From an uncultured bacterium (GTDB taxonomy: Bacteria; Verrucomicrobiota; Verrucomicrobiia; Verrucomicrobiales; V1-33), in the NCBI GenBank assembly GCA_903954065.1, contig CAJBME010000131.1:16906-80905 (forward strand): a DNA stretch of 64,000 nucleotides. The letters are read 5' to 3'. Numbering within the stretch: the stretch's first letter is position 1; every line of letters begins with the position of its first letter. The position numbers and the translations under genes were made by a program. Shown here one piece after another: positions 2,210-44,194 of the stretch. The notes under the pieces were generated by a model that saw only the letters and a program-made list of their open reading frames with translations, was not told where the DNA came from and ran no database searches.

Positions 2210-4399
2210 TTGCCTCCGTCCCCTGCCATCATTGACCCACCCGCCAACACGGGGCCCAACCGTCCCTCCAGCGTCGGAATATGGGTCGCTTTAACCGTGG
2301 CCGGGTGGCATGTGGCATTTTGGGCCACCGGCGCCCTAACGCTGGGGTTGGCCACCTCCCCGGCCGGTACGGTCTTTGAAGGACTGGCCGAACCGATTCA
2401 TCAAAAATTGCTGCTAGCTTCGCACTTACGGGTCCTGACCGCGTACGCGGCCGCCGGACTGGGGTCGTTCATTCTGGCTTATGCCGCCGTGCGTCTCTGG
2501 GTCGGAAGCGGGCCGGTCTCGCGCTGGGGCCTGATTGCTCGCACTCTATTCATACTGAGTTTGTTGCTCGGCTACGGGTGGTTGCGCCTGGCGCATGCCC
2601 AGCCGTATTTTCTAGGACCTGAAACGTACGACACCTGGTATTTTCGCGCCCTCCTGACATGGCCCGAAGCCATGCGCGAGCGCCTCATGTTCGTCCTTTT
2701 CGCTTTCCTGCCGGCCGTGGTGGGAGTGGCCGCCGCCGGTGTCTACATCATGGAAGTGGCCCGCTGGTTCCGCACCGGCAGTCGATGCACCCGCCTCACC
2801 CTGACTACCACCGCCGTCAGCGCCGTCCTGCTCGCCGGCTGGCTAATCGCCCCACACTTCATCACCGCACCCGCATCCAGCCCCCACGGACGCATGAACG
2901 TCGTCATGCTCTCGTCCGATGAAATGACCACCGCGCCCGTCACCCCAGACGCCGCCACCAGCCAACCACATCTCGCCTCCCTCGCCGCCCAGTCAGTCGT
3001 CCTCACCCACATGCACACCCCGCTGGCCACCAGCGTGGGCCATGAGGCCAGCCTGCTCACCGGCCAGACACCCAACACCCACGGCCTGCAAACCGCTCGA
3101 CCGTCCCGCCAAAGCGTGGACCACACCCTCGCCTCGTCCCCACTCCTCCCGGCTATCCTCCACCAGGAAGGATACGCCACCGCCGTCCTCGGAGGCGCCG
3201 GCGCCGGCGCTTTCAGCACCGCCCAAGGCCTCGGCTTCACCCAGATCGAAACCCCCTCAGACGATACCTACCCAGCCCACCTCGCTAGCCAAGTCTACCC
3301 TGCCCATTTTATCATCCCCACCTGGCTCGATAACCGCCTCGGCCGCCGCCTCCTCCCCGGATTAACCGTCCTACCAGGCCGCATCTCACCCGACGAGGTC
3401 ACCCAACGCCTCACCGCACACCTCGACGAAGGCGCCCTCTCCGGCACCCCGTTCTTCTTCCAAGCCGTCTATTCACACCCCGAACCGCCCCACTCCACCG
3501 CCCCCACCCCCCCACTCCAGCCGCCCGTCACCTCCCCGCCCCCACCACGGTCGTTCGACGACCACCTCGCTCTCATCCTCAAATCACTAGAAAAAAACGG
3601 GCTGCGGGACAATACCATCCTCGTCGTTCTCGGCCGCCCGTCACCCCCACAAAAACCCTCTCCGCTCACAGCCCCATCTCATCTCGCCGATTCGACCAAA
3701 CCCGTCGACGCCGCTGGCTCAGCCGACGCCGCTGGCTCAGCCGACGCCGCTGGCTCAGTCGACGCCGACGCCATCAACAACGCTCCAATTCCAGTCATCT
3801 TCCACGTTCCAGGCCAGCCTTTTGCCCCGGGCCTCATCCGCCAACTCACCCGGGCTTTTGATCTGGCCCCCACTCTGTTGGAGGTACTCGGCCTGCCCGT
3901 TGATCCTGCCATGGAGGGAGTTTCGCTGGTTCCCTCGCTGAAAAACCCCGAACTCCCGCTCGCCTTGGCCGATTATGGCCAATCCCCGGGATTCCCTGAC
4001 GAGCTTCCTGGGCCGGAAGCCACCGCCAGCGATCGCCATCATTTTCGCGAAAACGTGCAACTCGATCCCGCCGCCGGCTATAGGCTGGTCCTGCGCGACG
4101 AATCCTCCATCATACGCCGCAAAATCCGCTGGCTGCGTACCAATCACTGGCACCTCGTCTTCACGCCGGCCAGCGCGTCCGCCGAAGGCGTTGAAGGTGT
4201 TGAAGGTGTTGATACTTGGCAACTCTTTGATCTGCGCTCAGATCCAGACTCGTCCCGCGACGTGAAACTGCAAAACCCCAAAGTCTGGCAATCAATGGAA
4301 ACGGCCTTGCGCCGCTGGGTTGATGAAAAAAAAGAAACCCGCATCACGGAAATCTTCCCGGATGGCGAACCGCCAGCCGTGGTTCTCCCGGGCACGTGA
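2210..4399 (+). CDS. Polytopic membrane protein with a sulfatase/alkaline-phosphatase-superfamily-like domain (LtaS/EptA-like architecture), possibly degenerate
   Basis: 729-aa ORF with a TTG start. About five hydrophobic helices in the first ~230 aa, then sulfatase-like blocks (NVVMLSSDE, SLLTGQTPNTHGL, NTILVVLG). These blocks are interrupted by Pro-rich low-complexity inserts and in-frame tandem repeats. Confidence 0.5.
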   Translation: MPPSPAIIDPPANTGPNRPSSVGIWVALTVAGWHVAFWATGALTLGLATSPAGTVFEGLAEPIHQKLLLASHLRVLTAYAAAGLGSFILAYAAVRLWVGSGPVSRWGLIARTLFILSLLLGYGWLRLAHAQPYFLGPETYDTWYFRALLTWPEAMRERLMFVLFAFLPAVVGVAAAGVYIMEVARWFRTGSRCTRLTLTTTAVSAVLLAGWLIAPHFITAPASSPHGRMNVVMLSSDEMTTAPVTPDAATSQPHLASLAAQSVVLTHMHTPLATSVGHEASLLTGQTPNTHGLQTARPSRQSVDHTLASSPLLPAILHQEGYATAVLGGAGAGAFSTAQGLGFTQIETPSDDTYPAHLASQVYPAHFIIPTWLDNRLGRRLLPGLTVLPGRISPDEVTQRLTAHLDEGALSGTPFFFQAVYSHPEPPHSTAPTPPLQPPVTSPPPPRSFDDHLALILKSLEKNGLRDNTILVVLGRPSPPQKPSPLTAPSHLADSTKPVDAAGSADAAGSADAAGSVDADAINNAPIPVIFHVPGQPFAPGLIRQLTRAFDLAPTLLEVLGLPVDPAMEGVSLVPSLKNPELPLALADYGQSPGFPDELPGPEATASDRHHFRENVQLDPAAGYRLVLRDESSIIRRKIRWLRTNHWHLVFTPASASAEGVEGVEGVDTWQLFDLRSDPDSSRDVKLQNPKVWQSMETALRRWVDEKKETRITEIFPDGEPPAVVLPGT
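3707..3760 (+). repeat. In-frame 18-bp tandem repeat x3 (gacgccgctggctcagyc), encoding DAAGSA/DAAGSA/DAAGSV
   Basis: Read directly: copies at 3707-3724 and 3725-3742 are identical and 3743-3760 differs at one base. A second 9-bp repeat (gaaggtgtt-like, encoding EGVEGVEGV) lies near 4183-4210 in the same gene. Confidence 0.9.
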
Positions 4400-5941: not shown

Positions 5942-6110
5942 GTCGCTGACCCCGGCCGCCGCGCCGAACGCCTCTCCGAACGTCTTTTTGGCATGGGGCG
6001 GATGCGAAGAAGCGGTTTCGGAGCCGTGTCTTGAGGGATGTGGCCTGAGGGCCAAGTGTGGAAACCGGGGCCAGCGTACCCGGCTACAGTGGCGGCGTCC
6101 CGCCTGCCCC

Positions 6111-6143
6111 GTCGTTTCGTATTCGGGTCTTTTGTAGCCGTGG
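6111..6143. repeat. 33-nt direct repeat, copy 2 (gtcgtttcgtattcgggtcttttgtagccgtgg)
   Basis: 202 bp downstream of copy 1. Followed by the hairpin ggctcc-gtt-ggagcc (6142-6156). Confidence 0.8.
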
Positions 6144-6197
6144 CTCCGTTGGAGCCAATCGACCACCACGTTTCCGATACCGTGCGCGCAGCGTGGC

Positions 6198-6887
6198 TTA
6201 GCCGCGTGGTCTCATCCCACCCGCAACCACCGTCTCCGGAGGCCTCAACCGCGACGCTCCGGTCAAGGCGGGCTCACCCAACAGGGACCCACCCAGAACA
6301 GGCCACGGACGGTGCGGCGCCAGCGTCACAATGCCCGCCGCCAAAGAAGCCCACCGAGCCGAAGAAACTTCCCGACTGCTCATCGAGGAAACAGCACGCT
6401 CGAACACTTCGCGGATGATAAAACGCTGCACGACTCCCGCTTCGAGATACCGCCGCTTGGCGGCTGGTGGAAGATCATGAAAATCAGAGATCTCGCCGCG
6501 GCAGAGCTGGGATCCACACTGGCAGGGCATGGTCCACGAGCGCTCACTCATGGTCGTGGAATAATCGAAAAAAACTTCCTCTCCCGCCTGAAGGTCACGC
6601 AAAGCCACCATCTCCAGATCGTCCCGCAATCCCGCATTCGGGTCGCATGAGTGATTGATGTACCGCCCTTCCGGGGTCTCCGGGTAAAGATACAAGTCCT
6701 GCTCCAGCTGATACGAATGAGCAAACCAGTCGTCATCCACTCCGCGCTTGTTACCGCCAAAAAGCCGGCCCCGCAGACTGAACATCAACTCGCCCGCCCC
6801 AAACGCCCGCCCGGCATACAGGCCGTAACCCGCCACCACCGACGGAGCACAGTACAAAGACACAGCATGAAGAGTGCGTTCGCTCAT
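6198..6887 (-). CDS. SET-domain protein (putative protein lysine methyltransferase)
   Basis: RYINHSCDPNA (SET NHSC motif), EEVFFDYS, and post-SET Cys cluster CQCGSQLCRG. Confidence 0.8.
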   Translation of the reverse strand: MSERTLHAVSLYCAPSVVAGYGLYAGRAFGAGELMFSLRGRLFGGNKRGVDDDWFAHSYQLEQDLYLYPETPEGRYINHSCDPNAGLRDDLEMVALRDLQAGEEVFFDYSTTMSERSWTMPCQCGSQLCRGEISDFHDLPPAAKRRYLEAGVVQRFIIREVFERAVSSMSSREVSSARWASLAAGIVTLAPHRPWPVLGGSLLGEPALTGASRLRPPETVVAGGMRPRG

Positions 6888-6898
6888 AAATGAATCCT

Positions 6899-7246
6899 TT
6901 ATTCAGTCAGCAAGACCAACGAGGCCACCCCCAACAAAATACCCAGCACCTCACGCGTTCGTAAGGTCTCCTGGAAAAAAACCACCCCCACCACCGCCAG
7001 CAACAACGCCGTGCTCACCGAATAAAAAGCCCCCAGCTGCGCCAGCTTGAGATGACGCATCGCCCACACCCACCCAAAGGCCGTCAACGCATAAATAAAC
7101 GCCCCAATCAGAAAATACCCGCTGGACGTCGCGTTCGCCTTCCCACTCGCCACCTTCAAAGCCGCATCCGCCAGCACGCCAGCCACACTCAAGGCCAACA
7201 CTAAGGAAATCCCAATCATGTTTGGTGAAAATCGGTCGGTTATCAT
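6899..7246 (-). CDS. Small EamA/SMR-like membrane protein (ArnE/ArnF-like)
   Basis: 115 aa with 3-4 hydrophobic helices (IGISLVLALSVAGVLADAALK.., FLIGAFIYALTAFGWVWAM.., ALLLAVVGVVFF.., VLGILLGVASLVLL). Lies 11 nt upstream of, and co-directional with, the SET gene. Confidence 0.5.
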   Translation of the reverse strand: MITDRFSPNMIGISLVLALSVAGVLADAALKVASGKANATSSGYFLIGAFIYALTAFGWVWAMRHLKLAQLGAFYSVSTALLLAVVGVVFFQETLRTREVLGILLGVASLVLLTE

Positions 7247-7281
7247 TCCTTAAAATTTTCGCTTAATTATCCGGTTTCGTC

Positions 7282-7350
7282 AATAAAATTACTCAAATTT
7301 TTTCATATTTGTGTCGCTTTTTTAATAAAATTCGCAATTTTTTCATAATT
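7282..7350. repeat. Imperfect direct repeat in an AT-rich divergent promoter region (aataaaatt-N-caa(a)ttttttcata(t/a)tt, two copies)
   Basis: Copies at 7282-7309 and 7324-7350, read directly. Located between divergent gene starts at 7246 (-) and 7571 (+). Confidence 0.6.
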
Positions 7351-7570
7351 TCTGATCTTTAGGTCGATTTTTACAGGGAAATCTACCCGCTCGACCCTCA
7401 GCAGAAATAGTAGTCGCCGTCCTGAAATCTTTGCTCCTGAGATGATTAAGATCTCCCATCATCCAAGTTCTTCTCCTTCATATCAGGAAATCTTAAAAAT
7501 TAAGGCCAAAGGAGGGTAAACTGTTTGACTGATCATAATTTTTATAGTTTATTCATTTAATTATTAATCT

Positions 7571-8788
7571 ATGAATAAGCTGATTCTTTCATTAGGCCTT
7601 CCGAGTGTGCTGTGGGGAGCGACGCTGATGCTATGCGGGTGCGGTGGAGAAAACGGAGGACAGCCCGGACCGGCGAAGGGTGGCCAAGCGGAAACGTCTT
7701 CAGCGACGCCCCCTACTTTGGTCTTGTTGGGGATGCAGGATTATTTCAATTTGGAGCTGCTGGATCTTTTTGAAAAAGAAACGGGGGTCCGGATCGACTA
7801 TCAATTATACGAGGAACCAGACGAGGTTGAACCTCGATTGCGGTCCCAGCCGGGATCGGCTGACTTGATTGTCATCGACAGCTTCAACTTGCAGAAGTTA
7901 AGGCAACTGCATCTCTTGAGGGAGCTAGACAAATCGGCGGTTCCCAATCTGACCAATGCAGACCCGAAATTTTTGAATTTAAGCTGTGACCCGGGCAACT
8001 CGGTATCGGTTCCGTATCACTGGGGTACGACGTTGATTGCCTACCGCAAGGACAAGCTGCCCGATCCGGTTCGTTCTTGGAAGCTCTTGTGGGATCAGGC
8101 TCTGAAAGGGCAGGTCATGATGCTCAATGACTCGTTTGAACCGATGGCCGTGACCATGCTGCTCAGCGGGCATTCTGCTGAGACTCTCGATGACGCCCAC
8201 TACAGTCTGGCCGCCAGCACGTTGCTGGATCACTTGAAATCGATGGACGCCCGCTATGGCGATGACGGACAGGTCAAATCAGCCCTGCTGGACGGCTCCG
8301 TGACCGCCGCCATGTGCTACAGCGGCGATGCGGCCATGGTGGCCGCCGAGCAGCCCAACGTCGATTTTTTCATTCCTGAGGAAGGCGCGATGATGTGGGT
8401 CGATTGCATGGCTATCGCCCGCGACACGCGCGACCCGGTGGCCGCCCATGCGTTCCTCAATTTTTTCCTTCGTCCGGAAATTGCGGCGGCCAACACCAAC
8501 GCCATCCATTACGCTTCCACCAACCGTGAAGCGGAAAACCTTGTGAATGAGGAGTTAAAGAACGACCAGCGACTCTACCCCCCGCCCGCATTGAGGGCCA
8601 AACTCCAGCTCGTGCCCCAGCTTGACCGCGAGCGGGATGCCCTTGTCAACCGGCACTGGTACGCCGTGCGCCGCCAAGTGATGGACGGAGCCGATCCGGA
8701 ACCTGCCGAACCCGCCGCCGCCCCCGGAGCCACCGCAGCCGCCGCAGCCGCGGAACCAGCCCACCTCGCGGAGGAAATCAGCCAATGA
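7571..8788 (+). CDS. PotD/PotF-family polyamine-type periplasmic binding lipoprotein (orphan; no permease or ATPase genes nearby)
   Basis: Lipobox LMLCGCGG. Family blocks SVPYHWGTTLIAYRKDKL, CYSGDAAMV and FFIPEEGAMMWVDCMAIARD..AHAFLNFFLRPEIAA. Ala/Pro-rich C-terminal tail. Confidence 0.8.
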   Translation: MNKLILSLGLPSVLWGATLMLCGCGGENGGQPGPAKGGQAETSSATPPTLVLLGMQDYFNLELLDLFEKETGVRIDYQLYEEPDEVEPRLRSQPGSADLIVIDSFNLQKLRQLHLLRELDKSAVPNLTNADPKFLNLSCDPGNSVSVPYHWGTTLIAYRKDKLPDPVRSWKLLWDQALKGQVMMLNDSFEPMAVTMLLSGHSAETLDDAHYSLAASTLLDHLKSMDARYGDDGQVKSALLDGSVTAAMCYSGDAAMVAAEQPNVDFFIPEEGAMMWVDCMAIARDTRDPVAAHAFLNFFLRPEIAAANTNAIHYASTNREAENLVNEELKNDQRLYPPPALRAKLQLVPQLDRERDALVNRHWYAVRRQVMDGADPEPAEPAAAPGATAAAAAAEPAHLAEEISQ

Positions 8789-11538
8789 AGACGACCCGGT
8801 GGCAACACCTGTTTCCCACCATCCGCAGTCGGCTGCTCGCCGTGCTGACCGGATGCGTCCTCCTGCCGCTGATCGCCGCCCAGCTCTGGATGCACCTCGT
8901 CACCCGACGGTCACTCGAGGCAAGTGAAATCGGGAAATACCACTCGCTGACCACCGAGGCCGCCCGGCAGGTCACCGCCCAGATGAAGTTCTCCGAACGC
9001 AATCTGCGCACCCTCAGTAGCAATCACCTGCTGCGAAAACTGGAAACTGAGAAGGAATGGGTCGAAGCCATCGGCCACATCGCCCGAGCCGGCAACTTCT
9101 GGACCGACATCTCGCTGTACAACCAAGGCGGAAGCCTACTCGCCTCCACCTCGGAAGACTATACCGAACCGCAGGAACGCACCGAATGGTTCATGCGCGC
9201 CCGTCAGGGCGAAACCGTCCTCTCCACCCCACAGCTGGTCCTCGCCCGCTCCGGCCGCCTCGACGTCGCCGTCTACCTCCCGTTAGAAGGGTCCAAAACC
9301 CTGAAAAAAGTCATCGTGCGCGGACGCGTCCCGTTCGATGAAGTCGGCGTCTCCCTCTCGCAGGTCGACCTCGGGAAAAACGGCTATCTAGTCCTGCTCG
9401 ACGGACGCGGCAATGCCTTGTACCACCCTGATTCCAAACGCCTCCTGCGACGCTACGACGGCCCGGGACGCGCCGCCCTGACCACCAGCGAAGGCCATGG
9501 TATGGGCCGCGATGCCTCCGGACAGGAGGTCTACTGGATCGCTCACCGCCTCGTCCCCGAAGGGACCCGCGTCGGAGAAACCTGGACCTTGATGGCCGTC
9601 ATTCCACGCCACCAAATCATGGCCCTCGCCAGCCAAGGGACCCGCATTCACCTCGGTGCCGGCCTCGTCACCCTGCTGCTCGTCGGTTCACTCGGATACG
9701 GTTTCTCCCGGCGCATCACCCAGCCCATCGTCCACGCCGCCGAAGCCGCCCACCAGCTCGCCCTCGGCGAAACCCATACCCGCATCACCAGCGATCGCGG
9801 CCCACGAGAAATCCGCCAGCTAGCCCACGCCTTTAATTCCATGGTCGCCGAGGTGGTCCACCATCGCACCGATCTAGAAAAATTGGTCGAACTCCGCACC
9901 CGCAGCCTCCAGGAACAAAAAGAACGCTCCAACAATCTGTCCGCCCAGTTGCACGCCGCCTTCGAGGCCACCGAGGAAGCCATCCTCATCCTCCGCCACG
10001 ACGGCGTCGTCCTCGGCGCCAATCGCCGGTTTGGACTGTTCTTCGGGGCCCGCGTCGAATCACTCGCCGGCAGCACCTTCAACCAGTGGCAACAAGACTT
10101 CTTCGGATGCTTCGCCGACCCCCAGTCCATCTCCGATCGCTGGAATCAAACCGTCTCCCAAACCGCACGCGCCCAGCCCGAACCTAAATGGCAGGTGCTG
10201 CGCCCCGAACGCCGCGTCCTCGACGTTTATGCCTCTCCCCTGATCGCCGAATCCGGCGACAGCATCGGTCAACTCTGGGTCTTCCGCGACCTAACCCACG
10301 AACAACAACTCCAAGAAAGCTTGGAACAAGCCCAGAAAATGGAGGCCATCGGCCGCCTCGCCGGTGGCATCGCCCACGACTTTAACAATTTGCTCACCGG
10401 TATCCTCGGAAACTTGTCGCTCGCTGATGGCCACCTCTCCGCCCCTGGACTCGAAGACCCCCGCTACCACGTCCACTACGCCCGCTCCGCCGCCGAACGA
10501 GCCGCCCAGCTCGTCAAAGGGCTGCTCGGATTCTCCCGCCGGAGCCACATCGAACTCACCCACTGCGACCTCAACGCCGCCTTGCGCGAGTTCCACCCGC
10601 TCGTCCATCGCAGCCTCGGCGCCCAGTTCCCCGTCGAACTGAACCTCGATCCCACCCTCTGGGCCACCCACGCGGACATCAGCAAACTCGAACAGGTTAT
10701 CATGAACCTGTGCGTCAATGCCCGCGACGCCATGGAGTCAGGCGCCGGCAAAGGATCCATCACCATCCGCACTCACAACGAAGTCATCCCCGCTCAAAAC
10801 GCCCGCCGCTTCCAAGCCGTACCCGGGGAACACGTCTGCCTGTCCGTCACCGATACCGGCTGCGGCATGCCTCCGGAAATTATCGATAAAATCTTCGAGC
10901 CGTTCTTCACCACCAAAGAACAAGGCAAAGGCACCGGCCTCGGCCTCGCCACCTCCTACGGCATCGTCCAACAACACGGCGGATGGATGGAATGTGAGTC
11001 CGCCCCAGGTCAGGGCACCACTTTCCGCGTCTTCCTCCCACGCAATGAGGCCGTTGCTCCTCTCGAGGCCGCCCCCGCCGCCCCCGCCGCCCCCACCGAT
11101 GTCCGCGGCGATGAAACCATCCTGCTGGTCGATGACGAAATCATGGTCCGCATGGTCGCCGAAACCCTGCTCAAATCACACGGCTATCGCATCCTCACCG
11201 CCGGCGATGGCCAGGAAGCCGTCAGCGTCTTCCGCGCCCATCAAGACGAAATCAGCCTCATCCTCATGGACATGACCATGCCCAAAATGTCCGGCCTCGA
11301 GGCCTTCCAAGAACTGCGCACCCTCGACCGCTTTACCCCAGTCGTCATCTGCAGCGGTTACGTCGTCGACCTCGGAGAATGGCAGACGCCGCAAGGCGAC
11401 CGACCTAACGGCTTCGTCCAGAAACCCTACAACCTGCGCGACCTCGTCTCCACCGTGCGACATCTCATCGATACCTCCGCCGAACGCTCCTCCCAGTCAC
11501 GCCACCGCTCCCCCCAGACCGCTTCGCTCGCGAGTTAA
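8785..11538 (+). CDS. Hybrid sensor histidine kinase (TM, Cache-like periplasmic domain, HAMP, PAS, HisKA, HATPase, receiver)
   Basis: Start ATG overlaps the upstream stop (ATGA at 8785-8788). H-box [16 protein letters not shown]; N/G boxes [24 protein letters not shown]; receiver [24 protein letters not shown]. Confidence 0.9.
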
Positions 11539-11550
11539 AAAAATCCAACG

Positions 11551-12075
11551 TCAGCGCGGCGGCTGCGGCACCCCAAACGCATCCCGCTTCTCCCGCGGAT
11601 GAAAAAGCCATCCCGGCGCCGCATCCACCTCCTCGTAGTCCTCCAAAATAAACTCCGGCAAAATCTTGTCGCTGTTCGGATCATACACGCGCCGGCCACT
11701 CAAACGTCCCCGCAATCGGTACTCCCGGTTGTCATCATACTGATACCCGCGCTCCCCTCCCCCAGGCGTCTCCACCAAACGGTCCGGCGCCGCCTTCTCC
11801 CGCTCATTCAAAACCACCAGCTGCGCCTGCGCCCACGTCTGCCGCGGCCGACGAATAAATCCCCAAAATCGCGTCCGCTCCCCAGCCACCCGCCGACCCA
11901 CCCAATAATCCCCCGCCGGCTCCTCCATAATACGACGATCACGCGCCACCACCTCGGGCGCCACCGTCCGACACCCGGATCCCACCCCCATCATCACCAC
12001 CGTCAAAATAAAAACAAATCCCCGCATCCCCCACATCATGCGCTTCTCCCTGACCTTCGCAAACATTTTAGTCAT
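11551..12075 (-). CDS. Hypothetical lipoprotein
   Basis: Signal/lipobox ILTVVMMGVGSGC. No recognisable catalytic motif. Confidence 0.5.
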   Translation of the reverse strand: MTKMFAKVREKRMMWGMRGFVFILTVVMMGVGSGCRTVAPEVVARDRRIMEEPAGDYWVGRRVAGERTRFWGFIRRPRQTWAQAQLVVLNEREKAAPDRLVETPGGGERGYQYDDNREYRLRGRLSGRRVYDPNSDKILPEFILEDYEEVDAAPGWLFHPREKRDAFGVPQPPR

Positions 12076-12273
12076 GCACTCATTTCACACTTGCTTTTTT
12101 TTAAAATTTGAGACACAATCCTGATTATTAGTTCGAACTTGCGACGAGTTACCGCAATTACCAGATTAAAACTATGATTTTCATATTTACAGTATTTTAA
12201 AGCTTGTAATTTCTTCTGGTTCCATTAAACTAATCATAATTTTTAATATCAAGCCATCCCCCTTTACCGACCG

Positions 12274-12735
12274 ATGACTCACGCTTATCCCATGAACACA
12301 GCAGAAGACACCAAACCTCCCATGAAAAAAGTCGCCAGCGATGTGGCCGACTTCATCATGTTCACGCAGCGGTCATTCCTGCTCGACCTCTCGCGTGAAT
12401 TGAACCGCGGGAACGTCTCGTACGCCCAGTTCTTTCTGCTCGGATACCTCTCCAGTGAGCAACAACTGACCATGACCGACATCTCCCGCAAAATGGGTCA
12501 CAGCACGGCCGCCGCGACCGGCCTCGTCGACCGCTTGGAAAAATTAGGCTACGTCCAACGCCTCCACGCCGCCGATGACCGCCGCAAAGTCATGGTCCAG
12601 ATCACCACCAAAGGCATTCAGCTCGTCCAGCAACTCCGCGACAACCTCGCTAGCAACGTCGCCGATGTCATGGCCTCGTCCAATAACCCGGCCGCCCCAG
12701 AAATCGATAAAGCCGCGGCCTTCCTGAAACGCTAG
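12274..12735 (+). CDS. MarR-family transcriptional regulator
   Basis: Winged-helix block LTMTDISRKMGHSTAAATGLVDRLEKLGYVQRLHAADDRRKVMVQITTKG. Confidence 0.85.
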   Translation: MTHAYPMNTAEDTKPPMKKVASDVADFIMFTQRSFLLDLSRELNRGNVSYAQFFLLGYLSSEQQLTMTDISRKMGHSTAAATGLVDRLEKLGYVQRLHAADDRRKVMVQITTKGIQLVQQLRDNLASNVADVMASSNNPAAPEIDKAAAFLKR

Positions 12736-12776
12736 GCCCGCAGCTGCCTCCCTCTCCTGCCAGCCACCCCTCAATG

Positions 12777-12807
12777 CCCCAGCCGTCACCGGCCGGGGCC
12801 TTTTTTT
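12777..12807 (+). terminator. Putative intrinsic terminator downstream of the MarR gene
   Basis: Stem ccccagccg / cggccgggg (one mismatch), loop tcac, then a T7 run at 12801-12807. Confidence 0.5.
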
Positions 12808-12916
12808 GCCCCTTTTTCTCCCCCCAACAGGGCTTCCCTCGGATACCCCCAGAGGCTTCGCCTCGGTTATCTCTCCGAGGCTTCGCCCCCGTTTTATTTC
12901 AAATGCGTCACTCCGA

Positions 12917-13810
12917 TTAGGAATGGAGATGGCGCCCTGGGAACGTCAGTTCGGCGATGCCGGACTTGTCCAGACCGCCCAGTCCCGACTCGACCATTTT
13001 TTCATATTGGGCGGCGGTAGCGGCCGCCAGTGGCAGCGCCAGTCCTTTGGCCTTGGCCAGATCGAGCGCGATATTGCTATCTTTGGCGGCGTGCTCGGCG
13101 CTGAACCAGCAGTCATGCTCCCTCGACTGCATGTCGCCACCGTCGGTCTCCAACACCCGGCTGTTGGCCCCGGTCTGTGAGAAAACTTCGCGGATCAGAT
13201 CAAGATCCAGTCCCAGTGCGCTGGCGAGGCCCAGACCTTCGGCCAGCCCTGCCGTATTGATGTTCATCACCATGTTGACCAGCGCCTTGACCTCGGCCGC
13301 CTTGCCTGTCGGGCCGCAATACCGGAGGTTCACCGACATCAGCTTCAGCAACGGCTCAAACTTTTTAAAGGTCTCCTCACGGCCACCACACATGAGGTAC
13401 AACGTCCCCTGACGGGCTTGCGAGATCGAGCTGGCCATACAGCCTTCCACCGTGTGCGCGCCCGCCGCTTCAGCCGCTTTTTCCACTTCCTGCTGCAAAC
13501 CAGGGCTCAACGTCGCGCAGTTGATGAAGGTTTTACCCGTCGCATTGACCAGCAGGTTGTCTTCAGCCGCAAAGAAAATGCCGCGCATCGCCGCATCATT
13601 CGTCACCACCGTGAACACCACATCAGCCGCCGCCGTCACATCGGCCAGCTTCGTCATGGCCGCCGCCCCCAACTCAGTGGCCACTTCCTGCGCCACCGAC
13701 GCGTTGATGTCGTAGACTGCCGTAATCTCATAACCAACTTCCTTGAGACGACGGGCCATGTTCGATCCCATACGGCCGACGCCGACGAAGGCAATGCGTT
13801 CTTTACTCAT
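12917..13810 (-). CDS. NAD(P)-dependent oxidoreductase, 3-hydroxyisobutyrate/6-phosphogluconate dehydrogenase-like family
   Basis: Rossmann motif IAFVGVGRMGSNMARRL. Length and overall layout match HIBADH/GarR-type enzymes. Confidence 0.85.
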   Translation of the reverse strand: MSKERIAFVGVGRMGSNMARRLKEVGYEITAVYDINASVAQEVATELGAAAMTKLADVTAAADVVFTVVTNDAAMRGIFFAAEDNLLVNATGKTFINCATLSPGLQQEVEKAAEAAGAHTVEGCMASSISQARQGTLYLMCGGREETFKKFEPLLKLMSVNLRYCGPTGKAAEVKALVNMVMNINTAGLAEGLGLASALGLDLDLIREVFSQTGANSRVLETDGGDMQSREHDCWFSAEHAAKDSNIALDLAKAKGLALPLAAATAAQYEKMVESGLGGLDKSGIAELTFPGRHLHS

Positions 13811-15223: not shown

Positions 15224-15600
15224 TCGACTCGTCGGGGTGGATCGAGTATTTTACCGACGGATCGAACGCGGAACGCTTCGCCGGAGCCATCGCGGATGCG
15301 GACGCGTTGATCGTGCCATCGATCACGATCACCGAGGTATACAGGTGGGTGCTGCGCGAGGCGGGGTTATCCGATGCCCTTGCTGTCGCTGCTCTAATGA
15401 AACAGGGAAAGGTCATTCCCCTTAATGACCGCCTCGCGATTCTTGCTGCGGAAACCAGCCACAGGCACCGCCTCTCCTTGGCCGATGGAATCATTTACAC
15501 GACAGCCCTCTCCGCCTCCGCCGAGCTGCTCACGCAGGATTCCGATCTTGAGGGATTGCCAGGGGTCACCTACATCGCCCATCCCAAAAGGAACAGCTGA
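15211..15600 (+). CDS. vapC: PIN-domain ribonuclease toxin
   Basis: Acidic PIN residues in the expected order: VVDSS (D6), ITEV (E), SLADGI (D), TQDSD (D). 129 aa. Confidence 0.85.
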   Translation: MPAVVDSSGWIEYFTDGSNAERFAGAIADADALIVPSITITEVYRWVLREAGLSDALAVAALMKQGKVIPLNDRLAILAAETSHRHRLSLADGIIYTTALSASAELLTQDSDLEGLPGVTYIAHPKRNS

Positions 15601-15609
15601 GGAGAGAAT

Positions 15610-15639
15610 TTCAAAATTTCTCGCCAACGGGGGTATAAT
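15610..15639 (+). promoter_or_regulatory. Candidate promoter for the serpin gene (TTCAAA-N18-TATAAT)
   Basis: Perfect -10 TATAAT at 15634-15639, embedded in the inverted repeat gggggta..taccccc. Weak -35 at 15610-15615. Confidence 0.35.
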
Positions 15640-15664
15640 CATTTTTGTACCCCCTGAAACCCTG

Positions 15665-16942
15665 ATGAAACTGCTTCTCACCAGCCTGTTGATGGCCACC
15701 TTGAGCCTTGGAGCTATGCCCATTTCCCGCGCCCTCGAAAAACCGTCGGCCGCTGCGCACGCCGTCAACGCCTTGGGCGTCGACCTGCTCGCTCGGGGAA
15801 CAGCGGCGGGCACCAATACCGTACTTTCGCCGTATTCGATACAATCGGCCTTGGCCATGACCTATGCCGGAGCGGCCGGGGACACCCGGAGCCAGATGAC
15901 CGGCGTGCTGCACTATCCAGAGGACGAGAGCGCCTTGCACCAGTCGTTTGGGGAACTTCGGACGGCACTGGAAATGCTGAGCGCCAAACCCGTGGAGCAG
16001 GCACCAGCGGGAGCCAAAGCAGGCGGAGGTACCGCGCAGCCCATCCAACTCACCGTGGCCAACCGCCTCTTTGGACAACAAGGATATGAGTTCCGCCCGC
16101 CGTTTCTCGAATTAGTGGAACGCACCTACGGCGCCCCGCTGCAATCCATGGACTTCATCAGTCATGCCAACGCCGAGCGAGTAAAAATCAACAATTGGGT
16201 GGAAGAGCAGACGAAGCAACGGATCACTGACCTTATTCCGGGCAACGCCCTCACGAGCGACAGCCGCCTCGTACTGGTCAATGCCATTCACCTCAAAGCC
16301 CCGTGGGCCCGGGAGTTCCCCGCTCGCGCCACGCAGCCGCTGCCGTTCCATCTCAAAAATGGCGACCCCGTCAAAGTAGATACCATGCAGCGAACCGGCA
16401 AGATGGGATACGCAAAACTCGATGGATTTCAGGCGGTAACGGTCCCCTATCTCGGCGGCGAACTCCACTTGCTGGTGCTCCTCCCCGAAACCCGAGACGG
16501 TCTGGCCGCGCTCGAAGCAAAACTCACTCCCGAATTGCTGGCCGCCTGCGCCTCCTCCACCCTAACGGAAATCGAGCTCTCTCTCCCGAAATTTAAACTC
16601 GAGCCGCCCGTCTTTAAACTAGCCGAAACCTTGCGTTCGCTCGGCATGACCCACGCCTTCGACGACCCCAAAGGCAGCGCCAACTTCGACCGCATGGCTC
16701 CGCGCACGCCCAAAGACTACCTCATGATCTCAGAGGTCTTTCATAAGACCTACATGACGCTGGATGAAAAAGGAACCGAAGCCGCAGCGGCCACCGCCGT
16801 CACCATGACCAGATCCACCAGCCTCATCGAGCCAACCACACCAGTCGCCGTGCGCGTCGACCACCCGTTCCTCTTTGCCATTCAGCACCGCAGCAGCGGG
16901 ACTTGCCTCTTTCTTGGGCGTCTCTGCGATCCGCGAGAATAA
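15665..16942 (+). CDS. Secreted serpin (serine protease inhibitor family)
   Basis: Start trimmed from 15425 to ATG 15665, giving signal peptide MKLLLTSLLMATLSLGAMPISRA. Inhibitory-type hinge EKGTEAAAATAV. C-terminal serpin signature VDHPFLFAIQHRSSGTCLFLGRLCDP. Confidence 0.9.
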   Translation: MKLLLTSLLMATLSLGAMPISRALEKPSAAAHAVNALGVDLLARGTAAGTNTVLSPYSIQSALAMTYAGAAGDTRSQMTGVLHYPEDESALHQSFGELRTALEMLSAKPVEQAPAGAKAGGGTAQPIQLTVANRLFGQQGYEFRPPFLELVERTYGAPLQSMDFISHANAERVKINNWVEEQTKQRITDLIPGNALTSDSRLVLVNAIHLKAPWAREFPARATQPLPFHLKNGDPVKVDTMQRTGKMGYAKLDGFQAVTVPYLGGELHLLVLLPETRDGLAALEAKLTPELLAACASSTLTEIELSLPKFKLEPPVFKLAETLRSLGMTHAFDDPKGSANFDRMAPRTPKDYLMISEVFHKTYMTLDEKGTEAAAATAVTMTRSTSLIEPTTPVAVRVDHPFLFAIQHRSSGTCLFLGRLCDPRE

Positions 16943-18181: not shown

Positions 18182-20251
18182 TCAGGGGGCGCGATCAGAG
18201 GCGGTCCTGAATCCGACGGTCGGGTCGCCCACCCCCGCATTCAGCGCCGGACGGCGTTGCTGCAGATCCGCCGGGCGCGCCGCGTATGATCCTCCTCGTA
18301 GCACAGGAACTTGCTGATCAAGAATATCCGGATGCAGCATGGTTGAATCAGTCCACTCGCTCACATTGCCAGCCATGCCGACGACTCCATACGGACTGAT
18401 GTCCGTCGTGGTAAAAGCATCCACCGGAGCCCAACTCGCATAACCATCTTTGCGCCCAAGATCAGGCCCGCTATCGACATCAGCCCCCGTATTGGCGCTC
18501 GGCGCATCGGGATGGCTCCCCCATGGATACAACCGACCGTCCGTCGAGCGCGCCGCTTTCTCCCATTCCATCTCGGTCGGCAGTCGCTGCCCCCGCCACG
18601 CGGCGTAAGCCCATGCGTCCCAATAATCCACATCCGTGACCGGACAGTTCACATCCACAGCCTGACCGCGCCAGACGCCACCCTTGCGGGCCGTAGCCAA
18701 CAGTTCATCCCACGCCGGCGGACGGTGAGTGGATTTGGTGGCTGGCTGCCGCGGATGATCATAACGATGTCCTGACGAGCTGGCCAAATGCTCGAGAAAT
18801 CGAGCGTATTGCGCGATGGAGACTTCGTATTTCGATATCCAGAAAGTGGGCAATTCGCGCATTTCTCCGCCTTGGTAGATGAAGGAACCACCGGGAATCC
18901 GGACCATTTCGTCGAGCAGCCGCGGTTGGGGCGCGCGCCAGTAAGGAATCATGTGGAACAGCATCCAGCCGCCGAGCGCTGCGACCGTGGCGAAGGAGGC
19001 CTGTATCCACCGGCGTTTGGCCTGCTGGCGCCGCTCCAGCGGGCGAGATCCTGTCGAGAGCCGTCTTGTCTTGGAGGGTCGGGCCTCGGCTAGCTGGCGC
19101 CTGGCCTCGACGACGAAAGGCATCAATTCGGCCCAGGTTCTGAGGCCGCGGCCGGAGACGTCACGCACCCGGGCCATGATTTCCTGAAATTCTGGGGCCG
19201 GACGGGCCGGATCAAGAATCTGTTGAGCGGCTCCGAACAGGGCGAGCATTTCCGCGCTCGGATCGAGAAACGGCGAGGCCGTGCCCATGGCGATATTGAT
19301 GACCCGGGGCAATTCATCAGGCCCGAGGATGACATCGCCCGGAGTCAGGGCGCGCCGCGCCAGACCATGATCTTCAAACCACAACACAGCCTCGGCGGCC
19401 GCCTGCATCAGATTCAGTACCGATTCCTGAGGCAGTCGCTGACGACGCGACCGCAGCTGATCCACACTGCGGCCCTGAACCCACTCACGCGTATAAAAAA
19501 TCCTTCCATCCTGCTCCTGCGCCTCGTAGACCGCCGCAATTTGCGGGTGCACCACCGCGGCTTGCGCCCGCACCAGCGAGCGAAAAGCCTGCGCCGACGG
19601 AGGATGACTGGCCGCCGCCGTACGCAGTCGCTCCAACAAAACCACCCGATTGACCGACCTCTGCAACGCCCGGTAGGTGACCGTTTCGTCGTTCGTGCTC
19701 AACACTTCCAATAATTCATAATCACCCAGGAGCGGCGCCGTCGAGGCCCCTTCCCGCGTCGGACCGCCCGCCGTCTGATCCCCGCGCTCAGCGACAGCCG
19801 CAGCCACCGCTGGTGCGCCAAAGCCTGCCGATTCAGGAGGAGGAGCGAAACGAGGCGGGAGCGCGACCGCCGCCGGCGCCGCCAGCGGCACATCCGAAGG
19901 AACCTTCCGCTCCGCAGACAACGCCGTCACCCACCCAACCACCGCCTCTATCGGCAGCGGCACCGCCGGTAACAACAACTCGCCAGGCAACCGCCCAGCC
20001 CAAGCACCCAAATCTCCTTCAGCTAAAAACACCGCCCGCACCGGACCGACCGCCGCCCGCCACTCCCCCACCATGGAGGCATGTCCAGCCGTCGTGATCA
20101 CAAGTTCAACCGAAGCCCCGGCCGTTTCTTGCCAAGATCGGGCCTCGGAAATACCGCCAGCCACCAAACACGGCCCGAATCCGGCCCGGCCGAGCGCTTG
20201 ACGCAGCTCCTGCCGAACACCCGCATCATCATGGACGATTAGGATGACCAT
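18182..20251 (-). CDS. Pseudo-receiver / Ser-Thr pseudokinase / TM / FGE-sulfatase (SUMF1-like) domain protein
   Basis: The N-terminus MVILIVHDDAGVRQEL.. is receiver-like, but VELVITT sits where the phospho-Asp is expected. The kinase-like region lacks a Gly-loop, has VVLLE in place of VAIK, ARRALTPGD in place of HRDLKPxN and NIA in place of DFG. One TM helix (WIQASFATVAALGGWMLFHMIPYW). C-terminal FGE-sulfatase blocks: MVRIPGGSF, RLPTEMEWEKAAR, GNVSEW, LRGGSY. Confidence 0.75.
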   Translation of the reverse strand: MVILIVHDDAGVRQELRQALGRAGFGPCLVAGGISEARSWQETAGASVELVITTAGHASMVGEWRAAVGPVRAVFLAEGDLGAWAGRLPGELLLPAVPLPIEAVVGWVTALSAERKVPSDVPLAAPAAVALPPRFAPPPESAGFGAPAVAAAVAERGDQTAGGPTREGASTAPLLGDYELLEVLSTNDETVTYRALQRSVNRVVLLERLRTAAASHPPSAQAFRSLVRAQAAVVHPQIAAVYEAQEQDGRIFYTREWVQGRSVDQLRSRRQRLPQESVLNLMQAAAEAVLWFEDHGLARRALTPGDVILGPDELPRVINIAMGTASPFLDPSAEMLALFGAAQQILDPARPAPEFQEIMARVRDVSGRGLRTWAELMPFVVEARRQLAEARPSKTRRLSTGSRPLERRQQAKRRWIQASFATVAALGGWMLFHMIPYWRAPQPRLLDEMVRIPGGSFIYQGGEMRELPTFWISKYEVSIAQYARFLEHLASSSGHRYDHPRQPATKSTHRPPAWDELLATARKGGVWRGQAVDVNCPVTDVDYWDAWAYAAWRGQRLPTEMEWEKAARSTDGRLYPWGSHPDAPSANTGADVDSGPDLGRKDGYASWAPVDAFTTTDISPYGVVGMAGNVSEWTDSTMLHPDILDQQVPVLRGGSYAARPADLQQRRPALNAGVGDPTVGFRTASDRAP

Positions 20252-26790: not shown

Positions 26791-29700
26791 TTAACGAGAT
26801 CCTGTCCCGCGGGTCGTAGCCGCAGGCTCGGACGCTGGTTTTTTACCCCAATTCCAAGGGAGAAGACGCGATCCACCCGACTTTTCAGGATTTCCCGCGG
26901 CCGCCCGGGCCGAGGCATTCTCGCGTTCCCAAAAGGCGGGAGAACGTTTTTCGCTCGGCAGCGAAGTCGGAGATTCTGGCTCCGGCGTTTGAGCCGCCGC
27001 TGTCGGCTGCGCCTCGACCCCAGCCGGCGCGACCGTCGGCTTCAGGGTAAGCGCTTTCACATTCGCCTCGATCACCGGCGCCGTCGCGGCGGCTGGCACT
27101 GCCTCCGCGGTCGGTTGCGGCCTCACTGCAGGCTGCGAACGCCCCGCTTCGTTGGGAAGCAAGGTGTGGGCCGAATCAAGCGGGATGTCGCCATTCTCCG
27201 TCGGCAGGATGACATCGCTGGAATCATACGCCGGTCTGGCGAATTTTTCCGCTTCCTTGCCCACCGCCGTGCGACGCAATTGATCCGTGTGCATGCCCTC
27301 GAGCTCCTCCGAGGTCTCGACAATCCGCGGTTGGATGAACATCAACAATTCCGACCGGCGGCGGCCTTTGGTAGTGTTGCCGAGCATACCGCGCAAAATC
27401 GGCACCCGGGTGAGCCATGGAATGCCTTTGTTAGTGCGGTCATCCGTCTCTTGAATAACCCCGCCAATGACGGCAATGCCGCCGTTGGGCACTGTGATCT
27501 CGGTGGTCAGGAACTGCTGGGTGATTTCCGGAACCAGCTGCTCACCGACTTGGCGGTCCGGCCCAAGACCATCGTTGATCTCGGTGATGTTCAGAGTCAC
27601 CTCGTTTTTCGAGTTGATGAGCGGAGTGACGAGAATCTCCAGGTTCACATCCTCGTATTCCACATTGGTGTTGAAGGTCGTCGTGCCGTTAGTGACGTTC
27701 GACTGCGTATTCGAGGGCACCGGAATGCGGCGTCCCACTGAAATATTCGCTTCTTTGTTGTTCGCCGTAAAAACGAACGGGCGCGACAGAATCTGGGCCC
27801 GGCCCGTGGACTCCACAGCCCGGACATAGACGTTGAAGAATTCACCCAAGGCCCCGTAGAGGTTCAGCCCGCCGGTAACATTCGTGAAGCTGGAGATATC
27901 CATGAGGTCACCAGGGTCAATGATGCCGCTGGTATTACCCAAGTTGGTCAAGGCTCCAGCCCACGTGATATTTTGTCCGCCAATGACGACATCTTCGGCT
28001 TTCCGGATGATGTCCATGCCGTATTGCATGTCGTCATTCAGGGTGATTTCGGCGATAACCGCAGAAATGGCCACCTGCAAAGGACGCACATCCATTTCGC
28101 CGAGGACTTCCTCGATCCGTGTCAGGTGTTCAGGCGGACCTGCGATCAAGAGTGAATTGGAGCGAGGCTCCGCGATGAGCAGCGTTTTGCCCACAATGGT
28201 CGAGGACGGGATGAGTTCCTGACCGGTGCTACTGTTCGAGCTGCTGCGGCCGCTGCTGAGGCCACCGCCACCCGCGCCACCACCACCACCCGCGCCGCCG
28301 CGCCCCCCAGCACCGCCACGCGCCGCATTGGCACCAAATGTCTGGCCACCGCCAAACGCCGCATTACCCTGAAAGCCGGTGCCAGTGCCTTGACGACCTC
28401 CCGCACCACCCCGGGCCCCACCAGCCACCGCACCCTGCGCCCCGGCCGCCCCGCCCGCGGCACCACCACCACCAATGACCTCGGTGCCGCGACCAATGGC
28501 GTCCGTAGCAATATTCAGGAAATCCTCAACACGGATGAAACGAAGCTGGAAACGCTTCAGGTTCTTCACGTTCGCTTCCTTATCGAGCTCCTTGATCAAG
28601 TCCTTCAGATACACCAAATCACTCGGACGCCCGGAAACAAGCACCTCGTTGGTGCGCGTAATCGCTTTGACCATGACCGTGGATTCATCAGGCGGCAGAG
28701 CTCCCCCCGCCTGTCCCGGCTGGCCCGCGACCCCACCCAAAACCCCCGGAGGCAAACCCGCCTGCAACTGGTCGGCCGCCACGTTGACCGCCACCCCGCG
28801 CGTGCCACCGCTGCCCGAAGCCTGCCCACGAAGCTTCGTCTGCGCCGCCAGAATTTCCGTCAGCACTTGCGCGACTTCTTCCGCATCCGCCCGCTCCAAT
28901 TGGAAAAATTCCTTCTCCACCGCCGCACTGGGGACGTCGATTTTTTCCTGCAAGGCAATGGCCAAGCGAATGGCCGGCAGATTGTCGGTGATGATCAGCG
29001 CACCCGCGGCTGGCACCGGCGTGATTTTGCTGACGTTTTGGCGGCTTTGCCCCAGAATCGCCTGCAGTGATCGCGCGGCATCCTCAGCCCCGATATGCTT
29101 GAGATAGAGGACGTAATTGATGATTTGCTCCGTTTCAGGAAGCATTTTGGGGTCGGTATAAACCGCCTGCACGCTGGAGCCTTGCTCGACCTGAGGACCG
29201 CGGGCCGTCGGGATGACCTTGTCGACCCCTTTAATATCAGACGGGATGATGCTGTACCCATTGAGCAGGAGAAACGCCTTGATGTAGTCGGCGGCCTGAT
29301 TGCGGGTCATCTTGCCGTTGCTCCGCAGCGGGAGCTGCGTGCCCTGAATGGTGCCGTCGCGCATGGTGCTGCGCCCCGTGAAAGCCTCGTATTTGTCAAT
29401 GATCTCAGCGATGTCCATCGCCGATTCCGTAAACTCAATCTCAGGAACTTCGGGATCGTATCCCGGCTCCGCCGCAATGACCGCACCGGCGTCTGTCCCG
29501 CCAGCAGAACCAGCAGCTGTCGCGCCAGCGGCCGCAGCAGGAGTGGCGGAGGCAGCTCCAGCCGCCGGACGCCCTGCACTCGAGGAGCCAGGCAGACTGG
29601 CCGGACGCCGCGGACGATCCCCCGGCGTCGAGGTCGGAGCCAACGAAGGAGTTTCGACCGTGGGTGGCACCGTTTCAGACGAAGTCGGGGCCTCCACGAC

Positions 29701-30072: not shown

Positions 30073-30141
30073 TGAGCTAGAGTGTGAAAGGGGCAGTAAG
30101 AATTGATCTGAAAATGAATAAGGGGATCTGGCAGAGTGATT

Positions 30142-44103: not shown

Positions 44104-44194
44104 ATGAACAAATAAATTAATAAAAGGTGAGATCGGCGAGTAGCGCAATCACCGGAGCAGCACCACTCGGTTTGTACCGCTGACGCTTTGGTCC

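Follow-up and report, generated by a model that had tools for sequence, protein, structure and literature searches.

Sensor kinases that depend on a solute-binding protein (SBP) are known for autoinducer-2, trimethylamine N-oxide, sugars, sugar phosphates, arsenite, and citrate. To our knowledge, the only characterised signalling SBP of the PotD type is NspS, which feeds a cyclic di-GMP (c-di-GMP) enzyme in a small subset of Proteobacteria; signalling in the Verrucomicrobia is, as far as we know, almost unstudied. Here we describe two adjacent genes in a stretch of 64,000 nucleotides (nt), hereafter the window, from an uncultured bacterium of the Verrucomicrobiales, lineage V1-33 (assembly GCA_903954065.1, contig CAJBME010000131.1, positions 16,906 to 80,905 of the forward strand). 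One gene encodes a PotD/PotF-family lipoprotein and the other a hybrid sensor histidine kinase. We consider it fairly probable that the pair is a polyamine co-sensor of the NspS-MbaA kind with a phosphorelay output, in which the SBP serves as the external ligand detector of the kinase.

The NspS-MbaA systems of Vibrio cholerae and Sinorhizobium meliloti consist of an SBP_bac_8 homologue of PotD that plays no part in transport and a receptor with a dCache-like domain, encoded by overlapping genes (PMC8050422, PMC9993111). LuxP-LuxQ, HptA-HptS, TorT-TorS, and XylFII-LytS are presented in the first of these papers as systems in which the binding protein is the ligand subunit of the kinase and the sbp gene adjoins the kinase gene; the periplasmic domains of LuxQ, HptS, and MbaA are given there as dCache-like, and LuxQ and TorS as hybrid kinases (PMC8050422). 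The window pair would belong to this general class of SBP-dependent sensor kinases (LuxPQ, HptSA, TorTS, and others), which it resembles in its adjacent genes, its dCache-like periplasmic domain, and its hybrid kinase; the SBP families (Peripla_BP_4 and others against SBP_bac_8) and the ligands differ. A PotD-type SBP is absent from the sensor-kinase entries in the passages of Table 1 of the 2021 review (PMC8050422), and our searches of open-access papers gave no description of a PotD-type SBP paired with a histidine kinase.

Set beside NspS-MbaA, the window pair shows the same arrangement: a PotD-like SBP gene without transporter genes, directly upstream of the receptor gene and overlapping it, and a receptor with two transmembrane (TM) helices around a dCache-like domain, followed by HAMP. 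The SBP family also appears to match the pocket features reported for the V. cholerae protein (VcNspS), namely a Tyr at PotD W229, an Asp at PotF D247, and an acid at PotD S83/T84, and it has these in common with the SBPs encoded upstream of dCache-GGDEF-EAL proteins (L084, L088). The sequence-only reading of this DNA had drawn the parallel with NspS-MbaA as an analogy, and it turns out to go further: by sensor homology we found two proteins of dCache-(PAS)-GGDEF-EAL architecture (P0166, E 1.7e-12, and P0185, E 9.3e-11), each with an SBP_bac_8 gene immediately upstream, and at the locus L084 the SBP and GGDEF-EAL genes overlap by 20 nt. The output of the window protein is PAS-HisKA-HATPase_c-Response_reg and not a GGDEF-EAL c-di-GMP enzyme; the pair would work most like NspS-MbaA, yet with a phosphorelay kinase at its end it falls outside that system as defined. 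It differs further in that its SBP, a lipoprotein, has a tether and a disordered tail, that its family keeps the acid of PotD E171 where the MbaA-type-linked SBPs have Val, that a second SBP gene or a fused double SBP is present in some of its relatives, and that it occurs in the Verrucomicrobiales, whereas the survey in PMC9993111 covered Proteobacteria. The features of the two-gene unit are as follows (aa, amino acids; pLDDT, predicted local distance difference test):

7571..8788, + strand: gene of the PotD/PotF-family solute-binding lipoprotein, 405 aa, proposed ligand-binding co-sensor.
7571..7642, + strand: signal peptide with a lipobox-like L-C-G-C, Cys24 being the putative lipidated residue (from the translation).
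SBP aa 25-44, directly after Cys24: Gly/Pro/Ser-rich tether.
7703..8695, + strand: folded two-lobe binding domain, SBP aa 45-375 (from pLDDT, Foldseek, and pocket mapping).
8696..8785, + strand: Ala/Pro-rich C-terminal tail, SBP aa 376-405, predicted to be disordered and not present in PotD/PotF.
8770..8788, + strand: presumed translational-coupling junction, with GGAGGA at 8770-8775, the kinase ATG at 8785-8787, and the SBP stop codon TGA at 8786-8788.
8785..11538, + strand: gene of the hybrid sensor histidine kinase, 917 aa.
8833..8889, + strand: transmembrane helix 1 (TM1), kinase aa 17-35 (from hydropathy; part of a long helix, 13-78, in the model).
8896..9648, + strand: periplasmic double-Cache domain, kinase about aa 38-288, proposed docking site of the SBP.
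9649..9852, + strand: transmembrane helix 2 (TM2; about aa 289-309, assigned by inspection, below the hydropathy threshold) and HAMP (aa 307-356).
9946..10302, + strand: cytoplasmic PAS domain, kinase aa 388-506 (Pfam PAS_4 at 393-506, 3.4e-09).
10351..11046, + strand: HisKA (aa 523-586, with the phospho-acceptor His531 in AHDFNN) and HATPase_c (aa 631-754).
11119..11457, + strand: fused receiver, Response_reg aa 779-891, with D782/D783, the phospho-acceptor D829, and K880.

The two open reading frames (ORFs) meet in the sequence agccaATGAag, and the Shine-Dalgarno-like GGAGGA lies inside the SBP gene, 9 nt 5' of the kinase ATG. The sequence-only reading had reported a 4-nt ATGA overlap at 8785-8788, a kinase composed of Cache-like, HAMP, PAS, HisKA, HATPase, and receiver domains, and no ATP-binding cassette (ABC) permease or ATPase genes nearby. 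Both ORFs and their overlap can be read from the sequence as described, Pfam and the AlphaFold2/Foldseek analysis agree on the domains, and the lack of ABC genes extends over the whole 64-kb window, where tblastn with the E. coli PotA/B/C/G/H/I proteins gave nothing at E<=1e-3.

The strongest argument for a functional pair comes from its relatives. The SBP family alignment, scanned over the GTDB species representatives, gave 79 loci: 65 are verrucomicrobial, and the other 14 (twelve cyanobacterial and two from unclassified metagenome bins, L070 and L074) show 24-30% identity. Those SBP homologues that bear a taxon name are annotated as Verrucomicrobiales. Of the verrucomicrobial loci, we took as informative the 57 that offer 1.2 kb or more of sequence downstream; at 56 of these the next gene after that of the SBP, in the same orientation, encodes a homologue of kinase residues 12-369. 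The pair persists down to 31% SBP identity and 24% sensor identity, and its adjacency survives while all other neighbours are rearranged, which is far beyond chance. The gaps between the two genes in the relatives are mostly 3-86 nt, and five loci share the 4-nt overlap (on naive start calls). The SBP of the single exception, L027, groups with the extra SBP that in L039 lies beyond the SMR and SET genes of the same locus; the L027 sequence opens at the end of a contig, and SET comes first on the other contig of that metagenome-assembled genome (L037). Probably, then, this SBP is the third one of a locus that the assembly has split. A reverse search by the sensor domain alone returned P0117 (27% identity) and P0141 (25%) with an SBP_bac_8 gene upstream, and P0163 (23%) without one. 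A Pot-type permease was found within 10 kb at none of the verrucomicrobial loci (about 57); a generic ABC ATPase lies several kb from the pair in three of them, and the cyanobacterial homologue L061 is a member of a full potABC cluster. The sequence-only reading had named, as a further sign against its proposal, a pair that relatives do not keep combined with a potABC operon elsewhere that is short of its own potD; the relatives do keep the pair. Since no transporter accompanies the SBP and since it shares an operon with the kinase in at least 56 relatives, it is most likely the ligand detector of the kinase; this comparative evidence supports the role of ligand sensor in a polyamine-responsive phosphorelay that had been proposed for it from the sequence.

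The SBP belongs to the Pfam family SBP_bac_8 (3.8e-31; 109.3 bits against a cut-off of 27), and its best NCBIfam matches are PotD (NF007048, 3.3e-46) and PotF (NF007962, 7.9e-44). Its N-terminus, MNKLILSLGLPSVLWGATLMLCGC, carries a signal peptide; this ends in LMLCGC, and at least 90% of 68 homologues retain Cys24, which agrees with the lipoprotein that it had been called at the outset. In the predicted model the pLDDT exceeds 95 over aa 45-375 and is low for residues 1-44, and residues 376-405 are disordered. By sequence, the best matches in the PDB are Lmo0810, PotD, S. pneumoniae PotD, PotF, SpuD/E, and TpPotD. The 30 best Foldseek matches of the model in the PDB are all polyamine receptors (E 1e-34 to 1e-26), among them PotD, PotF, SpuD/E, VcPotD1, and the PotF-agmatine entry 6ye6; the target-normalised TM-scores against solved polyamine receptors are 0.79-0.92, at 26-31% identity. 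Clustering with non-polyamine families had been named beforehand as a sign that the polyamine assignment was wrong, and these matches show the contrary. The SBP thus has the fold of the transport proteins PotD and PotF (of PotABCD and PotFGHI; also of SpuD/SpuE, VcPotD1, and Lmo0810) and largely retains their acidic and aromatic pocket; it differs from them in its lipid anchor, in having no adjacent permease or ATPase genes (in the window and 56 related loci), and in the pocket changes described below. In a neighbour-joining tree, in which the fused double SBPs were entered as split domains and few transporter-type sequences were sampled, the signalling-linked SBPs (the verrucomicrobial ones together with those of L084 and L088) stand apart from E. 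coli PotD/PotF, Okeania PotD, and a distant cyanobacterial group in 148 of 200 bootstraps, and verrucomicrobial monophyly is recovered in 81 of 200. The tree is moderate evidence that the signalling-linked SBPs are separate from the transport SBPs.

The ligand pocket was mapped on 125 members of the SBP family, using a numbering of PotD and PotF pocket residues that we take to be that of the structural papers and that was checked against the E. coli sequences. The pocket residues of the window SBP are M55, D57, Y58, D103, D187, E190, Y250, D253, W276, D278, and Y314. Eight of the ten PotD/PotF positions tested are identical or conservatively changed in the window SBP, and comparison with the two transport proteins, which the sequence-only reading had put forward as a check on its polyamine assignment, comes out in favour of that assignment:

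PotD E36 corresponds to window D57 (D/E in 110 of 125 family members).
PotD Y37 corresponds to window Y58 (Y in 112 of 125).
PotD D168 corresponds to window D187 (D/E in 120 of 125).
PotD E171 corresponds to window E190 (E/D in 123 of 125).
PotD W255 corresponds to window W276 (W in 125 of 125).
PotD D257 corresponds to window D278 (D in 124 of 125).
PotD Y293 corresponds to window Y314 (Y/F in 112 of 125).
PotF D247 corresponds to window D253 (D in 124 of 125).

Two changes are specific to the family: PotD W229 is replaced by Tyr in 123 of 125 members (window Y250), and an extra acid, Asp or Glu, takes the place of PotD S83 in 119 of 125. At the position of PotD W34 the family has Trp in 88 of 125 members and Met in 25, and the residues at PotD T35, Y85, and Q327 are variable. 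The pocket has six acids (D57, D103, D187, E190, D253, D278) and no basic residue at the mapped positions, and it joins D168 of PotD with D247 of PotF; from this we infer a polycationic, carboxylate-free ligand, which is probably a tri-amine, for instance spermidine, norspermidine, or homospermidine. The norspermidine contacts predicted for VcNspS are W41, D70, D90, F131, Y233, D236, W261, and D263 (PMC9993111). Compared with this published residue list only, the Y-x-x-D and W-x-D spacings (Y250-x-x-D253 and W276-x-D278 in the window) and an acid close to position 90 (the window has D103) appear to fit both the window family and the SBPs of L084 and L088, which are linked to dCache-GGDEF-EAL proteins; the equivalent of W41 is Met in the window. 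Taken together, the lack of a permease, the Tyr at PotD W229, and the extra acids at PotD S83 and PotF D247 would provide a conserved signature by which signalling PotD homologues could be separated from those in transport.

Several points weigh against a polyamine co-sensor. The scores of the SBP are far from the equivalog cut-offs (157.8 against 582 bits for PotD, 150.2 against 636 bits for PotF), and Met55 replaces the stacking Trp of PotD/PotF (W34/W37). The verrucomicrobial loci all come from one order, and the synteny therefore partly reflects common descent; an ABC importer could be encoded elsewhere in the genome; and neither polyamine genes nor MatE nor a response regulator were found in the window. 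In Pseudomonas aeruginosa, PA0602/AgtB-AgtS and PA4985-AruS are encoded by adjacent SBP_bac_8 and kinase genes and show no detectable binding, and these SBPs, predicted to bind polyamines, bound gamma-aminobutyrate (GABA) and 5-aminovalerate instead (PMC11113362).

The last of these observations bears on the nature of the ligand. The pair might be a co-sensor for which the polyamine label is wrong, its ligand being a different cationic amine: agmatine or a diamine, for example, or else a guanidino compound or an amine derived from an amino acid. The P. aeruginosa "spermidine/putrescine binders" that turned out to bind GABA and 5-aminovalerate (PMC11113362) would be a precedent; the Met in place of a conserved Trp and the variable residues at PotD T35, Y85, and Q327 point the same way, PotF itself binds agmatine (PDB 6ye6), and enzymes encoded near the pair in relatives act on arginine and agmatine. 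We nevertheless regard a ligand of this kind as rather unlikely: the six pocket acids, with no mapped basic residue, disfavour any ligand that bears a carboxylate, and the closest solved relatives are all polyamine binders.

The other P. aeruginosa observation, adjacency without interaction (PMC11113362), would suit an SBP that is a transport component for an ABC importer encoded elsewhere and that stands beside the kinase gene by way of regulation or inherited synteny, with no contact between the two proteins. The origin of all the loci in one order is compatible with this, as is the scope of our transporter searches, which covered the window and the loci. Several lines of evidence make such an arrangement improbable. 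About 57 loci have no permease within 10 kb, as opposed to the transporter-linked L061, which has one; the adjacency survives SBP divergence to about 31% identity and the rearrangement of the neighbours; the genes overlap, with a Shine-Dalgarno site inside the SBP gene; the pairing of SBP and dCache recurs with GGDEF-EAL outputs; and the tree splits the signalling-linked SBPs from E. coli PotD/PotF and Okeania PotD (in the 148 of 200 bootstraps given above). The P. aeruginosa systems resemble the window pair in that SBP_bac_8 genes annotated as polyamine binders lie beside sensor kinase genes, but they differ from it in ligands, in the sensor domains of their kinases, which are SBP_bac_3 and CHASE5 instead of dCache, and in transporter context, as the agt ABC transporter operon adjoins pa0602 (PMC11113362).

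As to the kinase, its ATPase boxes are NLCVNA at 641, DTGCGM at 690, and GTGLGL at 716, and with these, its H-box His, and the acidic pocket, phospho-acceptor Asp, and Lys of its fused receiver it is a hybrid kinase of the HisKA type. All 45 full-length orthologues (45 of 45) retain the H-box and the receiver Asp. Its best NCBIfam match is CckA; orthology with CckA was rejected, as the match reaches 356 bits against a cut-off of 1000 and is confined to the cytoplasmic core. The Pfam dCache_1 profile scores 43.6 bits on aa 54-247 of the window kinase, just under the cut-off of 45, which is passed by orthologues (51.1 bits in L023, 45.7 bits in L033). An AlphaFold2 model of residues 1-330, based on a 71-sequence alignment, has a mean pLDDT of 93 and a predicted TM-score (pTM) of 0.85, and its best Foldseek matches are the dCache domains of PscC, PctA/B/C, and Mlp24 (E 1e-11 to 1e-9). 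The Cache call stands because the model matches solved double-Cache ligand-binding domains.

That the matches to PctA/B/C and Mlp24 are ligand-binding dCache domains raises another explanation: the kinase could sense directly in its own dCache pocket, and the SBP could buffer, concentrate, or scavenge the ligand, or inhibit the kinase independently of any ligand. Related sensors without an adjacent SBP gene, namely P0163, a Ser/Thr protein kinase (P0099), and a methyl-accepting chemotaxis protein (MCP, P0197), fit this as well. We hold direct sensing to be very improbable. The amino-acid motif of dCache_1, R-x-W-Y...Y...D, appears not to be kept in the sensor family, whose consensus is T-x-W-F, or in the window kinase, which has STPQ; the linkage to an SBP gene is near-obligate (56 of the 57 loci); and the periplasmic domains of the SBP-dependent receptors LuxQ, HptS, and MbaA are likewise described as dCache-like (PMC8050422). 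In the Ser/Thr kinase P0099 (L085:5001-7205), a single TM helix links the kinase to a periplasmic dCache domain that shares 46% identity with the window sensor. This protein may sense directly, or it may make use of the SBP that belongs to the kinase system.

The sensor domain is found with more than one kind of output. We classed 147 sensor-domain representatives by BLAST and motifs, of which 52 stayed "other/short". Most of the kinase partners of the SBPs are about 890-925 aa long and have the architecture of the window kinase; those in L023, L044, and L046 have the same sensor and HAMP (with different HisKA, receiver, no PAS), and those in L033 and L041, together with five database clusters (P0093-P0097), are 340-aa sensors without an output domain. 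With an adjacent SBP we thus see hybrid histidine kinases of two kinds, c-di-GMP enzymes, and a sensor that lacks any output. Judged by these comparisons, the conserved unit is the SBP plus the dCache module and not the whole kinase. The 340-aa sensors of L033 (3300-4322) and L041 (11120-12142) consist only of TM1, dCache, TM2, and a short tail; each has its own PotD-like SBP upstream, and the genomes also carry a full pair (L030, L035). They could be decoys or heterodimer partners.

The variety of outputs leads us to a broader proposal that we make tentatively, as a possibility rather than a probability: an NspS-type SBP and its cognate dCache domain may form a portable cassette that is joined to varied outputs, and in the Verrucomicrobiales this cassette may serve an order-wide phosphorelay that monitors periplasmic polyamines and controls their export and biosynthesis. 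If this is true, the kinase of the cassette in the Verrucomicrobiales would be the first histidine kinase dependent on a binding protein of the PotD type. Polyamine co-sensing would then reach the two-component phosphorelays and another phylum, and double-domain and multiple SBPs would let cells discriminate polyamines. At eight loci (L024, L026, L028, L031, L034, L037, L039, L050) a single ORF of 717-736 aa upstream of the kinase encodes two tandem PotD-like domains, for instance L034:10001-12130; this fusion is sub-clade-specific, and L002 and L038 have two separate SBP genes in its stead. Pocket positions are not the same in the two fused domains, and a single kinase may therefore receive input from two ligand specificities.

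The contact between the window proteins, the ligand, the sign of the regulation, and the targets are what we infer, and the following scheme would join them to the observed features. The two genes, coupled in translation, would make up a bicistronic operon for a co-sensor of polyamines outside the cytoplasm. A SBP of the PotD/PotF fold, which would have lost, or never had, a transporter partner, would be kept at the membrane by its lipid anchor and a flexible tether of about 20 residues. Its acidic cleft (D57, D103, D187, E190, D253, D278), flanked by Y58, Y250, W276, and Y314, would capture a periplasmic polycationic amine, and the SBP, in its liganded or its unliganded state, would dock on the periplasmic double-Cache domain of the kinase. 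Docking would alter signalling through TM2, HAMP, and PAS to the autophosphorylation of His531 and the transfer to Asp829 of the fused receiver, from where the phosphoryl group would pass on to an Hpt protein and a response regulator encoded elsewhere. The sequence-only reading had placed the cognate Hpt protein and response regulator outside the window. For the response regulator this is borne out by our analysis, which found no second receiver domain or kinase core in the 64-kb window; for Hpt it holds in a narrower sense, in that Pfam finds no such domain in the kinase and no free-standing one turned up in the window, where no search was aimed at one. Likely targets, from synteny only, would be cation exporters (SMR-like or MatE) and polyamine biosynthesis genes.

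This choice of targets derives from the gene context in the relatives. Immediately upstream of the SBP gene, and divergent from it, lies a MatE exporter gene in 30 loci or an SMR-like gene in 18 loci; an SMR-like gene stands beside the pair in L089 too. In 31 loci a SET gene lies no more than 10 kb from the pair; its place is either upstream, in divergent orientation, or on the same strand some 1.7 kb downstream. Genes for several enzymes occur within the same distance: arginine decarboxylase SpeA in 11 loci of diverged sub-lineages (SpeA identity 35-49%), a deoxyhypusine/homospermidine-synthase-like protein in 6, an agmatine-deiminase-like protein in 5, a DDAH-like enzyme in 14, and a PS-decarboxylase-like protein in 12. 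Of such context genes the window has only the SMR-like and SET genes. By association in the relatives, the pair appears tied to polyamine metabolism and cation export, and, if the proposed scheme is true, this context suggests that in the Verrucomicrobia external polyamines are linked by regulation to cation exporters and to biosynthesis genes of the arginine-decarboxylase and homospermidine type. In L082 (310-5639), L089 (1-2481), and L052 (6298-8265), arginine decarboxylase, homospermidine-synthase-like, and agmatine-deiminase-like genes, together with MatE, lie just upstream of the pair; these groups look like a polyamine, possibly homospermidine, biosynthesis cluster.

The surroundings of the pair in the window are as follows:

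6198..6887, - strand: SET-domain protein, 229 aa, divergent from the SBP-kinase operon (Pfam SET, 4.3e-12).
6899..7246, - strand: SMR-like small membrane transporter, 115 aa, divergent from the SBP gene (EamA/EbrA/EbrB matches).
7247..7570: AT-rich intergenic stretch from which the SMR-like gene (-) and the SBP gene (+) diverge, presumed promoter region.
11551..12075, - strand: small lipoprotein-like gene, 174 aa, convergent, marking the 3' end of the operon (61% identity in L002).
12274-12735: MarR regulator gene.

The divergent and convergent orientation of the flanking genes delimits the unit, which is therefore a two-gene operon. An ORF on the + strand at 11599-12111 (170 aa) was considered as a downstream member of the operon and rejected; it is probably spurious, because it is of low complexity (Pro/His/Arg-rich) and less conserved than the minus-strand gene at 11551-12075 that it overlaps. 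The SMR-like protein matches Pfam EamA at 8e-5 and NCBIfam EbrA and EbrB at 1.6e-07 and 1.6e-05, the latter two below their cut-offs, and its gene is a possible regulatory target of the pair. A scan of 6000-13000 for sigma-70 promoter and terminator consensus sequences gave nothing above shuffled sequence, and an Rfam search of the same segment gave no match. A k-mer search for a common operator 5' of the SBP genes returned only AT-rich, -10-like words (TCATAATT) and no convincing regulator site. The intergenic region of the window holds TCATAATTT at 7533-7541, and TCATAATT(T/A) words occur 30-50 nt 5' of the SBP start in L002, L004, and L007 too, in AT-rich intergenic DNA of genomes that otherwise have 60% GC. 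The word may be a -10-like promoter element or an operator.

Elsewhere in the window, a 505-aa protein encoded at 15425-16942 (+) contains a complete serpin domain (Pfam Serpin, 1.6e-99), of a family that is uncommon among bacteria. A sulfatase-family protein (2210-4399, +) and a protein with an FGE-sulfatase (formylglycine-generating enzyme-like) domain (18182-20251, -) fit the polysaccharide-degrading lifestyle of verrucomicrobia. The cluster at 26791-34319 (-), with a 1093-aa secretin and a gene resembling protein K of the type II secretion system, flanked by several ORFs without a Pfam match, probably encodes a type II secretion or pilus-like system. Next to ybeY lies the gene of a 7TM receptor whose intracellular domain is an HD hydrolase (39264-40967, +), and an exosortase (EpsH) gene at 43072-44148 (-) near a gene for UDP-glucose dehydrogenase suggests a PEP-CTERM/exopolysaccharide locus.

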